Below, piece by piece: positions 20,533-35,564 of a stretch of 64,000 nucleotides of DNA (position 1 is the stretch's first letter; each line of letters starts with the position of its first letter). The position numbers and the translations under genes are program-made. Below the pieces are notes generated by a model. It was not told the DNA's origin. It saw nothing but the letters and a program-made list of their open reading frames with translations, and searched no databases. This DNA comes from a bacterium (lineage in GTDB: Bacteria > UBA9089 > JASEGY01): NCBI GenBank assembly GCA_040753085.1, contig JBFMHI010000003.1, positions 2,367 to 66,366 of the forward strand, given 5' to 3'.

Positions 20533-22179
20533 CTATTTAACCACGATTTCAGCTCCCTGAACGATAACCGTATCAATGCCAACCAAATTACCCGTTTCAT
20601 TTTTAACTTTCAGAAGCAGATCATCTCGGCTAATGCCTATGGCCGTTGTTCCTTTATTCTCTGCCTTAAAATTAATAATAGCTAATACCCCCGAACCGGA
20701 GACGCCGCTCATCTCCCCTTTTCGAGTAATGGCCAACTCAATGGTGCCTTTTTCGTTATCAGGCATGCCCAAAAAAACTACATCTTCGCCCAGAAATTCC
20801 CCTGGTTCGGCGCCTTTAGCGGTTATTACCTTCGGATCGAAGGCCGCCCTAAAGGAGGTCTGGAAGAGATTAGTTACTTTTTCTATGCGGACTTCCAGGG
20901 CAAACTGGTCGCCTACTTTAGCTTCCTTTGAGGCCGGAACTATTTTTAGGAGAGGAATGTCCTGGGAGGGGGCGATGGTGGCAAAGCTTCCCTCCTGCCG
21001 GACAAAAATTCCTTCGGCCTCCTGTGATTCGACCTTAAAGTAATAAGTAGTATCCGGCTCAAGGCCGGTCAAATTAACGACATGTGAAGTAGTTAACTGA
21101 GTTTCCTTCGGAATGGAGAGACCGAGTTGTGGAGTTTTACCATAGAAAACCTGGGTGGTGGCCGGACGGTTGGTGGCCCAAGTGATCTGGGCTGAATCTA
21201 CCGTGGGATGGGCCGATAGATTAGTGATGATTAGAAGGGTGGTAGTCCCCGGCTCCTTGGTCCTGAAGCTTCCTTCCTGGAAGGCCTTCTCTGCCTTGGC
21301 ATCCTCGGATTCGACCTCAAAATAATAAAGGGTATCCGACTCAAGTCCAGTCAAATTAACGGTATGCGAAGTAGTCAACTGAGTTTCCTTCGTAGTTGAA
21401 AGACCGAGTTGTGGAGTTTTACCATAAAAGACCTGGGTGGTGGCCGGACGGTTGGTTAACCAGGTGATCCGGGCTGAATCTACGGTTGAACTGGCCGATA
21501 GATTAGTGATGATTAAAGGAGTGGCCTCATCCGGCTCCCCGGTGGTGAAGTTCCCTTCCTTGAAGGCCGATTCTGCCTGGGCATCCCGGGATTCAACCTT
21601 GAAATAGTAGAGGGTCTTTGATTCAAGACCGGGCAAATTAACCGTATGAGAGATAGTTAGCTGAGTTTGCAGCGTGGTTGAGAGACCAAGCCCGGGGGTT
21701 TTGCCGTAAAAGACCTGAGTAGTAGCCGGGCGGTTAGTTAACCAGGTAATCCGGGCTGAATTCGAGGCGGGTGTAACCGAGAGGTCGGTAATAGCCAGAG
21801 GCTGAGGCTCAGTTGAGCCATAGGTGAAAGGTTTTGATTCGGAATTGGCCTCATTTCCCTCAGGGTCTTCTGACTTGGCTATGATATAGTAGGTAGCTCC
21901 CGCTTTAAGATCGGTCAATTCAACCCTGTGCTCTAAGGCATAATTTTTATGGGGGGCACTCAATCGGCCCACATTAGGAGATTCCCCATACCTGACCTGA
22001 CTGGTAGCCAGCTCGTTGGTCGCCCAACTGACCGCGGCCCCGTTAGCCAGAGGGGAGATATTGAGGTTAGAGATAACAGGTGCATTTACATCAGCCGAGG
22101 TGCCGGAATTAGAACTTTCCCCGCAGCCGGAGGGGAAAAGAATAGTAAGGATAAAAACCATCAAAAGTCGTCTGGACAT
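20533..22179 (-). CDS. lipoprotein with four ~95-aa FN3-like repeats and a C-terminal cohesin-like domain
   Basis: ATG at 22177-22179 (ORF-track TTG at 22194 less likely) with GGGGGTG 6 nt upstream; MSRRLLMVFILTILFPSGCG lipoprotein signal; repeats ITNLSA..TVDSARITWLTNRPATTQVFYGKTP; C-term ~140 aa KIVPASKEAKVGDQFALEVRIEKVTNLFQTSFRAAFDPKVI...SGSGVLAIINFKA has beta-sandwich pattern resembling type I cohesin. Confidence 0.75.
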   Translation of the reverse strand: MSRRLLMVFILTILFPSGCGESSNSGTSADVNAPVISNLNISPLANGAAVSWATNELATSQVRYGESPNVGRLSAPHKNYALEHRVELTDLKAGATYYIIAKSEDPEGNEANSESKPFTYGSTEPQPLAITDLSVTPASNSARITWLTNRPATTQVFYGKTPGLGLSTTLQTQLTISHTVNLPGLESKTLYYFKVESRDAQAESAFKEGNFTTGEPDEATPLIITNLSASSTVDSARITWLTNRPATTQVFYGKTPQLGLSTTKETQLTTSHTVNLTGLESDTLYYFEVESEDAKAEKAFQEGSFRTKEPGTTTLLIITNLSAHPTVDSAQITWATNRPATTQVFYGKTPQLGLSIPKETQLTTSHVVNLTGLEPDTTYYFKVESQEAEGIFVRQEGSFATIAPSQDIPLLKIVPASKEAKVGDQFALEVRIEKVTNLFQTSFRAAFDPKVITAKGAEPGEFLGEDVVFLGMPDNEKGTIELAITRKGEMSGVSGSGVLAIINFKAENKGTTAIGISRDDLLLKVKNETGNLVGIDTVIVQGAEIVVK

Positions 22180-22602
22180 AAATTGCACCCCCAATTTTGG
22201 TAACCGGTGATTAGGTACTCAGTAATAACCGATTAGCGCTTTTTCCCTCCCGATAACCTGTTACCGATAACCTGAGCCGTTACGTGGCGGCTAAAAAAAA
22301 AGCTTACCAGCGATAAGGTGACAAGGTTGCTCCTTCTCTTTTGGTAAGCCCGATTATTTTTTTGTCGGCAGCTTTTTAAAGTAGCCCTTTGATCAAGCGA
22401 CTGTTATAACCCCTGATCCCCCTCCCTTCAGGATACCTTTTCTCTCTCAAAGGAGACATCCTTGTCTTACTCGCTTTATCGACAGAACGATAAATAAACT
22501 TTAGGGTGATAATTAGCGGATTGAGGTAATATATAACTGATACGCCAAGCTATTCTGGATTATTCGCCTTTTTTGACCGAGGATAAGTTTCGCGACTTTG
22601 GA

Positions 22603-22649
22603 TAGGCTGAAGACTGACGTTCAATAGCCTTCAGCCTTCAGTCTGAGTA
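22603..22649. repeat. REP-like palindrome ggctgaagactgacgttcaatagccttcagccttcagtctga (GCTGAAGG family)
   Basis: inverted repeat read directly; related to 23651..23730, 27199..27296, 62517..62560. Confidence 0.6.
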
Positions 22650-22650
22650 A

Positions 22651-23613
22651 TTACGGACGGAGGTGGGTTTTCAAAAACGTCACGAGTTGGGGAAAGGATT
22701 TATTCTGGAAGGAATCCCCGAAGGCATGTCCATATTCCGGAAAGGTCACCAGTTTTACCGGCTTCCCCAGATGCAGCAATTCATTTCTGAGCATAAGGCT
22801 TTGGGTGATGGAAACTGTTCGGTCGTTCTCGCCGTGGAAGATCAAAACGGGCGCCGTTAGGAGGTCCAGATGGTAAAATGGCGAGCGGGCCTTAAAGATG
22901 GCCTCGACGGTGGATAAATTCAACCCCTGATTCAGAAACAGAACCAGTTCATCTTCGCGAAGGGAAAAACCGCCCAGTTGTCCGTAATAATTCACGAAGG
23001 CTTTGACGCGGCGGCCCAAAATTTCCGCCGACTGAAGGGCCAATCCGCCGCCCATGCTGTATCCAATAAGGCCCATCCTCTTGGCGTCAACTTTGGGATA
23101 CCTCGAAAGGGATACAAATGCCTGGACAATGTCGATGACTTCTCCTGGATAGGGGTAGGTATGCTGACCTTCCGAAGGGGGATACCCCCGATAATCGGGA
23201 ATGAAAACCACAAACCCTTCGGTGGCCAACGCCTCCAGCGTATCCCTCGTTCCCAATCCCTGAAAGTAACTCGCCGGCGGGTAATAGCCGTGGCATATCA
23301 CTACCGCCGGATAAGGCCCAGCCCCATTTTTGGGTATCGCCAATAGTCCAGAGGTGGTGATGTCCTCACTTCGATATCGAACGCTTTCGATTCTAAATTG
23401 GGGTGAATCTTCCACCACTCGGGCCACGGTTAGGGGGGTGGGCTGAAATTTCTTTTTTGATAGGGTTTCGATGGCCGCCTGTTCGAAGACTGGTGGAAGA
23501 CGGACCTTCCCAAGTTGGGGCGGCGTATCCTGGGCGGCGGTGGGAAAGGACGCACCCACCCCGTACCACATCAATATAAGTCCCGTGAATAAAAAGCGTT
23601 GTCTGCACATCAT
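22651..23613 (-). CDS. secreted alpha/beta-hydrolase (dienelactone hydrolase / S9-peptidase-like fold)
   Basis: signal peptide MMCRQRFLFTGLILMWYGVGASFPTAAQ; nucleophile elbow GYSMGGG, VICHGYY, FHGENDRTV, EYGHAF catalytic-triad context. Confidence 0.8.
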   Translation of the reverse strand: MMCRQRFLFTGLILMWYGVGASFPTAAQDTPPQLGKVRLPPVFEQAAIETLSKKKFQPTPLTVARVVEDSPQFRIESVRYRSEDITTSGLLAIPKNGAGPYPAVVICHGYYPPASYFQGLGTRDTLEALATEGFVVFIPDYRGYPPSEGQHTYPYPGEVIDIVQAFVSLSRYPKVDAKRMGLIGYSMGGGLALQSAEILGRRVKAFVNYYGQLGGFSLREDELVLFLNQGLNLSTVEAIFKARSPFYHLDLLTAPVLIFHGENDRTVSITQSLMLRNELLHLGKPVKLVTFPEYGHAFGDSFQNKSFPQLVTFLKTHLRP

Positions 23614-34576: not shown

Positions 34577-34652
34577 ATGCTCGATGCTCGATCCTCGATG
34601 CTCAATGCTCGATACTGATAAAGGATCCAGTGTCCAGCATCGAGCATCGAGC
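34577..34652. repeat. short GCATCGA/TCGATGC heptanucleotide block arranged as an inverted repeat around ataaaggatccagtgtc (near-copy of the 5' end of the 35806..36116 tract)
   Basis: read directly. Confidence 0.7.
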
Positions 34653-34659
34653 TAAAAAA

Positions 34660-34700
34660 ATCCCGCTGGAAAACTCACCAGTTTCCAGCGGGATATCTTG
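34660..34700 (-). terminator. intrinsic terminator for the cohesin-like lipoprotein gene: atcccgctggaaa-ctcaccag-tttccagcgggat followed on the minus strand by TTTTTTT
   Basis: 11-bp stem plus U-tract directly after stop at 34755. Confidence 0.7.
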
Positions 34701-34754
34701 CTTTTTGAGCACGCCACGAGTATAGAACCAGGCAGCGGGGTCGCTTCTGCCTCG

Positions 34755-35564
34755 TTAGCGGATATTTACCTTTCCTCCGACGATACGTATCTGATTAAGG
34801 TCAGGATGACTTTCTCCATTGGAATCTAACATCTGCGAAATAGTAAGGTTTAGTTGGGTGTTGCCTGCCTTTTTGGCCTTAAAAGGGACAGTAACCAAGA
34901 GGCCGCTTCCACTTACTCCTTTCATCCCTGCTCCACTGTTCGTCTGGGTCGTGGCAATAGAGAGTATATTGCCGGTCAGCATATTAAAGGTAAGCGGATT
35001 TTCCAGAAAATCGCCAAAGACAATCCCTTCTTCATCTACCTCATCTACCTCCAGGTAGTCGCTATCAAATTTGAGGTCAAAAGCCGTCCCGAACAGATTA
35101 GTTACATTTTCGGCTCTTATCTCTATGGTAAAGGTCTCTTTCCGCTTAACATCTACCAGCAGAGGAGACATAACCAGGGCTGAATGGGAAGTAGTGAAAG
35201 AAAGAATCTGAGGCTCGTTAGCATTACCGGATTGATCGGTAGAACTAATCATCAGGTAATATGTTTTATCGGGGTTAAGAGCGCTTAAATGGACCACATG
35301 TTCCTCGACGTAGGTTTCATCGGTCTTTTTCTGTTCTCTGATGGCGGCCATAGAGGGGCCGTAGTTCACCTGGCTGGTGGCCGGTTTATCAGTTTCCCAG
35401 TAGACAAGGGCTCTTTCAGCCGAGGGTGTGATTGAAGAATTAGAGATAGCCGGTGGGGTTTGATCCGGTTCTGTGGGGCTGTTTCCTCCTCCCCCACATC
35501 CTCCACAGCCGGTTAGCAGGAGAGTAAGTATGCCCATCATACTTCCCCATTTTAATAGGTTCAT
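34755..35564 (-). CDS. lipoprotein with one FN3-like domain and C-terminal cohesin-like domain (paralog of C-terminal part of 20533..22179 protein)
   Basis: ATG at 35562-35564 with AGGGAGGTG 6 nt upstream (ORF-track GTG 35573 also possible); MNLLKWGSMMGILTLLLTGCGG lipobox LTGC; shared motif VTNLFGTAFDLKFDSDYL vs VTNLFQTSFRAAFDPKVI and VSGSGLL/VSGSGVL. Confidence 0.75.
   Translation of the reverse strand: MNLLKWGSMMGILTLLLTGCGGCGGGGNSPTEPDQTPPAISNSSITPSAERALVYWETDKPATSQVNYGPSMAAIREQKKTDETYVEEHVVHLSALNPDKTYYLMISSTDQSGNANEPQILSFTTSHSALVMSPLLVDVKRKETFTIEIRAENVTNLFGTAFDLKFDSDYLEVDEVDEEGIVFGDFLENPLTFNMLTGNILSIATTQTNSGAGMKGVSGSGLLVTVPFKAKKAGNTQLNLTISQMLDSNGESHPDLNQIRIVGGKVNIR

Follow-up and report, generated by a model that had tools for sequence, protein, structure and literature searches.

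Do the putatively cell-anchored cohesins and the giant secreted proteins encoded close together in one bacterial genome act as partners, and, if so, do they build a cellulosome or another kind of surface structure? The question is raised by a 64,000-nucleotide stretch of contig JBFMHI010000003.1 (assembly GCA_040753085.1, GTDB lineage UBA9089, positions 2,367 to 66,366; hereafter the window), which encodes two lipoproteins ending in a cohesin and three giant proteins, two of which display a dockerin followed by the C-terminal domain (CTD) of type IX secretion system (T9SS) cargo. The reading that we favour, at a probability of roughly 0.55, is a non-cellulosomal cohesin-dockerin surface assembly of an uncultured, Poribacteria-like diderm, in which the giants would be docked onto the cohesins of lipoproteins or of neighbouring giants. 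The underlying observation is genuine and lies far beyond what chance would give; the original prediction, made from the sequence of the window and describing scaffold lipoproteins paired with T9SS-exported giant cargo in a cellulosome-like architecture, was right for the domains and overstated for the system, its novelty and the boundaries of the locus. The five genes are all encoded on the minus strand, and the window proteins looked up in NCBI are all singletons at 90% identity:

1..3374 (3374..<1), minus strand: giant 3, partial, with the C-terminus beyond the window start
4518..9674, minus strand: giant 2, 1718 aa (NCBI MEW5766144.1, 'right-handed parallel beta-helix repeat-containing protein')
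10298..20065, minus strand: giant 1, 3255 aa (NCBI MEW5766145.1)
20533..22179, minus strand: lipoprotein A, 548 aa (P0001; NCBI 'fibronectin type III domain-containing protein [bacterium]')
34755..35564, minus strand: lipoprotein B, 269 aa (NCBI MEW5766161.1, 'cohesin domain-containing protein')

Cohesins on the lipoproteins and inside the giants

Lipoproteins A and B both terminate in a true cohesin, and each giant comprises a cohesin module of its own, one per protein throughout:

20536..20952, minus strand: cohesin of lipoprotein A (residues 410-548), Pfam PF00963
34758..35183, minus strand: cohesin of lipoprotein B (residues 128-269), Pfam PF00963
11012..11458, minus strand: cohesin module of giant 1 (residues 2870-3018), lipoprotein-cohesin profile 19 bits and a fold match
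6285..6653, minus strand: internal cohesin-like module of giant 2 (residues ~1008-1130), hhalign probability 98.3%

The C-terminal domain of A scores 44.4 bits (E 2.5e-11) and that of B 37.8 bits (E 2.8e-9) against Pfam Cohesin PF00963, both above its gathering score of 24.1, and the two blocks on which the domain had been proposed, VTNLF.T.F...FD and VSGSG[VL]L, are common to both proteins. The AlphaFold2 model of the last 144 residues of A, computed from a 38-sequence alignment, is all-beta (pLDDT 96.5, pTM 0.89) and superposes on the elongated jelly-roll sandwich of solved cohesins, the 50 best Foldseek matches in the PDB all being cohesins of types I, II and III, with a best TM score of 0.83 (4uyp_C) at an identity to solved cohesins of only 12-21%. 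The family sequence profile likewise matches the PDB cohesins 4ums, 2xdh, 4uyp, 1g1k and 2vn5.

At the opposite end, the signal peptides of both lipoproteins end in a cysteine. Of the lipobox anchors originally proposed for the two proteins, that of B has the canonical sequence LLTGC, closed by Cys20 (...LTLLLTGC), whereas in A, with the N-terminus MSRRLLMVFILTILFPSGC, the signal peptide ends at Cys19 (LFPSGC) with an atypical proline at position -3. With reference to the consensus [LVI][ASTVI][GAS]C closing an N-terminal signal peptide, B and its orthologue P0317 match, while A (FPSGC) and its relatives P0002 (PFGC) and P0202 (IPGC) keep G-C-G and show proline or phenylalanine at -3/-2. Between anchor and cohesin, A comprises a stalk of four fibronectin type III (FN3)-like repeats (residues ~38-405) and B a single FN3-like domain, and this lipobox-(FN3)n-cohesin design recurs in P0002, P0317 and P0202, the last displaying several FN3 domains. 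Relatives with one to about six FN3 repeats indicate that the stalk length is variable. The FN3-like repeats of A (20965..22068, minus strand) are near-identical in their core, ITWLTNRPATTQVFYGKTP.LGLST, suggesting a recent tandem duplication.

The internal modules of the giants are not detected by PF00963. That of giant 1 matches the lipoprotein-cohesin profile with 19 bits over positions 15-136 of 139 and adjoins the dockerin directly; in the AlphaFold2 model of residues 2862-3110, comprising cohesin and dockerin (pLDDT 89.6, pTM 0.66), its top PDB fold matches are cohesins only (6kgd_A, TMt 0.82; 2xdh, 0.81). The module of giant 2, located ~340 residues upstream of its dockerin, aligns with the 38 cohesins at an hhalign probability of 98.3% (E 2.1e-14, 102 columns) and scores 18 bits with a custom cohesin hidden Markov model (HMM), the region that it shares with giant 3 reaching 98.3% against the cohesin alignment. 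On this profile evidence, the modules of giants 2 and 3 are to be regarded as cohesin homologues more divergent than the module of giant 1. Since each giant displays its own cohesin, a feature that had escaped the original prediction, the giants are not plain dockerin cargo, and proteins that comprise both dockerin and cohesin could equally bind one another.

Dockerins, sorting domains and the cellulosome question

A pair of dockerin repeats just upstream of a T9SS CTD had been claimed for all three giants. Both elements are present in giants 1 and 2, whereas giant 3 is cut by the window start and its C-terminus is unseen:

10769..11014, minus strand: dockerin of giant 1 (residues 3018-3099), PF00404 33.6 bits, E 4.5e-8
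4998..5264, minus strand: dockerin of giant 2 (residues 1471-1559), PF00404 36.6 bits, E 5.1e-9
10301..10603, minus strand: T9SS type A CTD of giant 1 (residues 3155-3255, motif QNYPNPFNPE), TIGR04183 29.9 bits, Por_Secre_tail 35.4 bits
4521..4820, minus strand: T9SS type A CTD of giant 2 (residues 1619-1718), TIGR04183 30.5 bits, FlgD_ig 44.3 bits

Dockerin_1 PF00404 (gathering score 22.9) matches giants 1 and 2 with 26.0 and 27.7 bits when the whole proteins are searched and with 33.6 and 36.6 bits for the isolated segments. The duplicated F-hand repeats are DTNNDRLVDARD at residue 3025 and DANGDGIVDARD at residue 3075 in giant 1, and DTDNDGDVDAAD at residue 1476 and DADGNGKVEAAD at residue 1535 in giant 2, with the calcium ligands intact in both loops of each protein (acidic or amide residues at positions 1, 3, 5, 9 and 12); the giant 1 model shows three helices in the dockerin at high pLDDT, with helices following the loops. 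Clostridial dockerins are compact modules of ~60-70 residues, with repeats ~32-36 residues apart. The dockerins of giants 1 and 2 do not fit this spacing, displaying between the F-hands a conserved, Trp-rich insert of 15-25 residues (GPxR..AS..W..Q.A.PW.P..ATYAD), and the dockerin profile yields a single marginal match among PDB dockerin sequences (2y3n_B, E 0.003). Judged from these sequences, the module looks like a divergent dockerin subfamily.

The sorting domains match TIGR04183 above its cut-off of 23 bits and up to the last residue of the protein, and the last 100 residues of giants 1 and 2 also match Por_Secre_tail, FlgD_ig and CHU_C. Hydrophobic N-terminal signal peptides are seen in the sequences of both proteins. 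Giant 1 comprises, after its signal peptide, many Ig-like repeats (Big_13, Ig_Rha78A_N, SusE-like), three beta-helix regions and a PKD domain, and ends in the order cohesin, dockerin, helical linker and T9SS CTD; giant 2 comprises a signal peptide, beta-helix regions, a PKD-like domain, the internal cohesin-like module, the dockerin and the T9SS type A CTD. Giant 3 is a paralogue of giant 2 (75% identity over 1123 aa), with a Sec signal peptide (MKRVKNKWGSELIVLL...), a right-handed beta-helix, a PKD-like domain and a cohesin-like module near its cut end.

These architectures bear directly on whether the lipoproteins could be scaffoldins that gather polysaccharide-degrading dockerin enzymes on the cell surface, a true cellulosome-like complex. 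Such a complex has been proposed for Cloacimonadota (PMC8542988), the right-handed beta-helix regions of the giants could conceivably resemble lyases or hydrolases, and weak sugar-binding matches are found below threshold (Glyco_hydro_2_N, 24.6 bits against 28; SusE-like). Nevertheless, the HMM scan returned no glycoside hydrolase (GH), polysaccharide lyase (PL), carbohydrate esterase (CE) or peptidase catalytic family above threshold in giants 1, 2 or 3, the single cohesin of each lipoprotein offers no multi-enzyme scaffolding, and within the 64 kb no dockerin or cohesin open reading frame (ORF) is encoded besides A, B and the giants. The cellulosome is rejected on the absence of recognisable enzymes and of a multi-cohesin scaffoldin in the window, and we regard it as very improbable; lacking both a scaffoldin of that kind and a recognisable carbohydrate-active enzyme (CAZyme) module, the term cellulosome-like is unsupported. 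Of the scaffold-and-cargo arrangement first proposed, the domains stand, whereas single cohesins, cargo devoid of CAZyme modules and giants with cohesins of their own do not agree with a cellulosome. The beta-helix, Ig-like, PKD and weak sugar-binding modules, in the absence of a catalytic family, make a role as adhesin or coat likelier than an enzyme complex.

The favoured surface assembly would operate as follows. The giants would be exported by the Sec pathway and then probably cross the outer membrane through the T9SS by means of their type A CTD, the removal of which would probably leave the dockerin exposed near the new C-terminus. The dockerin could then plug, in a calcium-dependent manner, into a cohesin located either (i) on a membrane-tethered FN3-stalk lipoprotein, which would hold the giant on the cell, or (ii) on a neighbouring giant, which would generate chains or a coat. 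The expected outcome would be an adhesin-like or glycan-binding surface layer and not an enzyme complex. The sequences and models establish which domains are present, how two of the cohesins fold, in what order the domains follow each other and how far the cassette is distributed, whereas use of a T9SS, display of the lipoproteins on the cell surface and the choice of binding partner are predicted.

Relatives, gene neighbourhood and the choice of partner

The last 400 residues of giant 1 gave 2972 significant relatives among 8000 scored candidates. According to custom HMMs, the best 120 of these relatives mostly display the order cohesin-dockerin-cohesin-CTD, and the remainder cohesin-dockerin-CTD or dockerin-CTD, in agreement with their precomputed Pfam labels (PF00963, PF00404 and PF18962/PF13860). 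The named sources are mostly Candidatus Poribacteria, which also provide the nearest named relatives of the cassette (~35-58% identity), together with Calditrichaeota, KSB1, Marinimicrobia and Gemmatimonadota. A scan of one genome per species, driven by the patterns NYPNPFNP and WPGDTNNDG, confirmed at least 587 stretches, the best 33 loci being nearly all from Poribacteria and the following ones from Zixibacteria, Calditrichia, Cloacimonadota, Ignavibacteria, Latescibacterota, Gemmatimonadota and Bacteroidota, mostly as CTD-only matches. The cohesin-dockerin-(cohesin)-CTD tail is a conserved cassette with thousands of relatives, found mainly in Poribacteria and also in other phyla, mostly of the Fibrobacterota-Chlorobiota-Bacteroidota (FCB) group. 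A related metagenome-assembled genome (MAG), GCA_030019105.1, encodes orthologues of A (P0002, 59% identity) and of the tail of giant 1 (P0064, 71%), each on a short contig of its own.

The cassette occurs in two sub-architectures. Most close relatives display a second cohesin between dockerin and CTD (P0073, P0076, P0080, P0085, P0094 and ~55 more), whereas giants 1 and 2 contain a conserved helical linker (YRAMYE.L...) in its place.

The lipoprotein side of the family is less easily counted. The search of representative proteins used an alignment (A2) whose profile of 327 positions had taken in the FN3 columns of P0002, so that most of its 15306 matches are FN3-repeat proteins and the counts are unusable for cohesins; only matches at profile positions ~186-327 were used. 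Searching with the lipoprotein cohesins also disclosed scaffoldin-like proteins comprising 2-6 tandem cohesins with a dockerin or a CTD at the end. A metagenome scan with the same cohesins gave six loci, all with distant cohesin families, and no orthologue of A or B. Two of these loci (L083, 291..5909; L084, 6172..10649) show a tandem array of five small single-cohesin proteins with an N-terminal membrane or signal segment, one protein also having a weak dockerin match and the L083 array being followed by a separate dockerin-like protein; they look like a different, compact cohesin-dockerin gene cluster.

The conserved tail raises the possibility that cohesin and dockerin do not meet in trans at all and instead form a rigid intramolecular unit, like the X-module-dockerin of type II dockerins, serving as a calcium-stabilised spacer or recognition element before the CTD. 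In giant 1 the dockerin follows immediately on the end of the cohesin, without any linker, the junction ...VWPGDTNNDG ranks with the best conserved stretches, and both parts of the two-module model show high pLDDT. However, the pTM of 0.66 does not strongly support a fixed interface, the distance between cohesin and dockerin in giant 2 does not agree with such a unit, and many relatives comprise dockerin and CTD with no cohesin (for instance P0075 and P0077), whose dockerins must bind in trans. We consider this explanation improbable.

More serious is the question of which cohesin a giant would choose, and here the gene neighbourhood is relevant. The gene of lipoprotein A immediately precedes that of giant 1 in the same orientation, the two genes being separated by the following element:

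20384..20413, minus strand: intrinsic terminator hairpin with a 12-bp stem followed by TTTTTTGTTTGT, between the stop codon of A and giant 1

Another hairpin, followed by a T-run (AGACCTAT...ATAGGTCTTTTTGTTTTT), is located at 20110..20165 on the minus strand, ~45 nt before the GTG start of giant 1, which is preceded by a GGAGG ribosome-binding site; this hairpin could be an attenuator or a leader structure. Taken together, the terminator after A and the hairpin before giant 1 make separate transcription likely.

Lipoprotein B is encoded 12.5 kb upstream of A amid housekeeping genes. The region between them (22.6-34.3 kb) comprises an alpha/beta hydrolase, a PIN toxin, RtcB, ParE, archease, a coiled-coil protein, MurJ, HisG and an AAA_21 ATPase, that is, housekeeping genes unrelated to the cohesin and dockerin proteins, and past B follow RuvC, folate genes, CdaA, phospholipid genes, GlmM and the dcw cluster. 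The interval 20533..35564, to which the system had been assigned, contains no giant (the giants occupy 1..20065) and consists mostly of unrelated genes; a single operon across it is ruled out by the intervening housekeeping genes and the terminator after A.

Among the 79 related CTD loci of the pattern-driven scan, none encodes a lipoprotein-type cohesin within 10 kb; most of these loci being CTD-only, the scan informs on taxonomy and is a weak test of adjacency. In the related MAG (locus L001), no giant 1-like N-terminus is encoded after the A orthologue, where the contig ends. Pairing of the A and B cohesins with the giant dockerins can reasonably be proposed from domain logic and neighbourhood, and not from a conserved gene pair.

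These observations fit an alternative in which the giants assemble only with each other, the dockerin of one cassette protein binding the cohesin of another or of itself, as chains or a lattice of cargo already fixed to the outer membrane by the T9SS/A-LPS route, while A and B would be bystanders that bind other, unseen dockerin proteins. Among the 120 closest relatives, the majority unite cohesin and dockerin in one chain, many with two cohesins around the dockerin, and all three giants have an internal cohesin; adjacency with lipoprotein cohesins is not conserved, and the terminator separates A from giant 1. In addition, the lipoprotein cohesins score ~100-110 bits against the tandem-cohesin proteins P0195, P0261 and P0214, compared with ~40-90 bits against the cassette cohesins. 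On the other hand, dockerin-CTD proteins devoid of cohesin and cohesin-only lipoproteins both exist, so that outside partners in trans are needed anyway, the orthologues of A and of giant 1 are both kept in the related MAG, and the two kinds of binding could occur together. Assembly of the giants with each other only is in our judgement unlikely, though it deserves to be taken seriously.

The docking of giants onto lipoproteins or neighbouring giants, which we prefer, has to be held against several points. With regard to the genes, these are the strong terminator ~120 nt past the stop codon of A that splits it from giant 1, the position of B among unrelated genes and the absence of conserved adjacency in the 79 loci. 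With regard to the proteins, they are the proline at -3 in the lipobox of A and the long inter-repeat insert of the dockerins compared with characterised ones, the repeat starts being 50 residues apart in giant 1 and 59 in giant 2. The lipoproteins may face the periplasm or the surface, and a lipoprotein anchor would be redundant if the CTD provides covalent attachment to A-LPS as in Porphyromonas. The binding of giants to lipoproteins is itself predicted from domain content. Finally, none of SprA/Sov, PorV, PorU, PorZ or GldKLMN is encoded in the 64-kb window, the range over which the T9SS core genes were checkable, and no paper on a T9SS in Poribacteria was found in open-access text.

Comparison with known systems and other features of the window

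The clostridial cellulosome shares with the locus the cohesin fold (type I cohesins 4uyp_C and 2vn5, TM 0.82-0.83), the dockerin as a calcium-binding duplicated F-hand, and the logic of a cell-bound cohesin that holds a secreted dockerin protein, predicted here. Clostridial anchoring relies on type I and type II cohesin-dockerin contacts and on SLH- or sortase-anchored scaffoldins, such as CipA, SdbA and OlpA/OlpC of C. thermocellum, among which OlpA and OlpC are, like A and B, single-cohesin anchors. In contrast, the host here is a diderm, a lipobox would take the place of SLH or sortase as the anchor, export is predicted to proceed by a T9SS-type CTD, and neither a scaffoldin with a family 3 carbohydrate-binding module (CBM3) nor enzymes are seen.

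The giants resemble the T9SS type A cargo of Bacteroidota in the N-terminal Sec signal, the C-terminal TIGR04183-type beta-sandwich and their nature as large, predicted surface proteins. Cargo of this type, including the gingipains of P. gingivalis and the S-layer proteins TfsA/TfsB of T. forsythia, is anchored to A-LPS after cleavage of the CTD. To our knowledge, no characterised T9SS type A cargo displays a dockerin or a cohesin before the CTD. Against this background, the cassette may represent a module of general use, as yet undescribed, that links type IX secretion with non-covalent self-assembly. In Poribacteria and the phyla related to them, mostly of the FCB group, calcium-dependent plug-and-socket contacts would then attach T9SS cargo to FN3-stalk cohesin lipoproteins and join the cargo proteins to one another, giving a protein coat that would replace or complement attachment to A-LPS; this broad generalisation is tentative and, in our judgement, less likely than not.

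The claim that the system does not correspond to a described one was too strong, in view of two precedents. First, Peer et al. (2009, FEMS Microbiol Lett, as cited in PMC8542988) had already compiled cohesin and dockerin modules found apart from cellulosomes and beyond the Firmicutes. As in that catalogue, single cohesin and dockerin modules occur here in non-enzymatic, non-Firmicute proteins, and cohesin and dockerin can share one polypeptide; the non-cellulosomal cohesin of Archaeoglobus fulgidus (2XDH) is among the best matches of the present family (profile E 2.3e-5, fold TM 0.74-0.81). The locus differs in the T9SS type A CTD on one partner, the lipobox and FN3 stalk on the other, and the long conserved Trp-rich insert between the F-hands. 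Second, a cellulosome-like complex with a T9SS CTD in its design was inferred in silico for Ca. Stygibacter (Cloacimonadota), an uncultured FCB-group bacterium (Williams et al. 2021; PMC8542988). There, a 3755-aa multi-cohesin scaffoldin displays the CTD, and enzymes of the GH18, GH57 and peptidase kinds display the dockerins (PMC8542988), whereas here the CTD is on dockerin-bearing giants with no catalytic modules seen, and the free-standing cohesins are single and on lipoproteins.

A cohesin-dockerin link has also been proposed for Cag_2037 and Cag_2038 of the Chlorochromatium epibiont (bioRxiv 10.64898/2026.03.19.712371), which are likewise giant Ig-repeat surface proteins of an FCB-group (Chlorobiota) bacterium but are exported by a type I secretion system (T1SS) with RTX, and display no T9SS CTD, lipoprotein cohesin or cohesin-dockerin cassette. 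In the open-access literature, no paper was found on the cohesin-dockerin-(cohesin)-CTD cassette or on natural lipoprotein-anchored cohesins. From its sequences, the locus is best described as a widespread, uncharacterised fusion of cohesin-dockerin modules with T9SS CTDs, together with single-cohesin FN3-stalk lipoproteins.

Uncultured diderm phyla, comprising Poribacteria, Calditrichota, KSB1, Marinimicrobia, Gemmatimonadota and Cloacimonadota, routinely fuse cohesin, divergent dockerin and T9SS CTD, and also encode lipoproteins showing a lone cohesin on an FN3 stalk. As far as we know, functional knowledge of cohesin-dockerin contacts comes almost entirely from the cellulosomes of Firmicutes. 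Such pairs count as some of the strongest protein-protein contacts known and have found wide use in engineering. If the proposed assembly is correct, it would (i) provide a second means of attaching T9SS cargo to cells, or of forming a coat on their surface, (ii) offer a new set of orthogonal cohesin-dockerin pairs, and (iii) bear, as a prediction from domain content, on the surface organisation of sponge symbionts and sediment bacteria.

Several further features of the window were recorded. Group II intron matches (RF00029, domain V/VI) above the gathering threshold are located on the minus strand at 25312..25388 (58.8 bits) and 27295..27430 (41.4 bits), flanking rtcB (25749..27197), with no reverse-transcriptase ORF nearby. 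The two elements have no common repeat of 20 nt or more, and the related MAG shows no such match in its syntenic archease-rtcB locus (L001); between the upstream match and the rtcB start there is an inverted repeat of 28 nt (27203..27295). RNase P class A RNA (60632..61143, minus strand, 288.7 bits) measures 512 nt against a model of 367 positions, indicating large insertions.

The GC content reaches 0.61 at 44001..46000, compared with ~0.41-0.55 in most of the window. This stretch covers a 586-aa ORF resembling a pyridoxal phosphate (PLP)-dependent decarboxylase (44078..45838, minus strand) with long overlapping ORFs on the opposite strand, and may have been acquired horizontally. Toxin-antitoxin or defence-like genes, comprising PIN, ParE, an AAA_21/AAA_15 ATPase and an AbiEii/DUF6036-like nucleotidyltransferase, are encoded at 24562..24972, 27802..28107, 32618..34270 and 47240..47824, dispersed among the housekeeping genes. 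The dcw cluster (48023..59759, minus strand) runs from mraW through one Mur ligase, mraY, ftsW, murC, murB, ftsQ and ftsA to ftsZ; murD, murG and ftsI were not seen at their usual places among ORFs of at least 180 aa, smaller or frame-shifted ORFs not having been checked. Near the window end, a YhgA-like transposase (Transposase_31, E 1.5e-61) is encoded at 62724..63836 on the minus strand.

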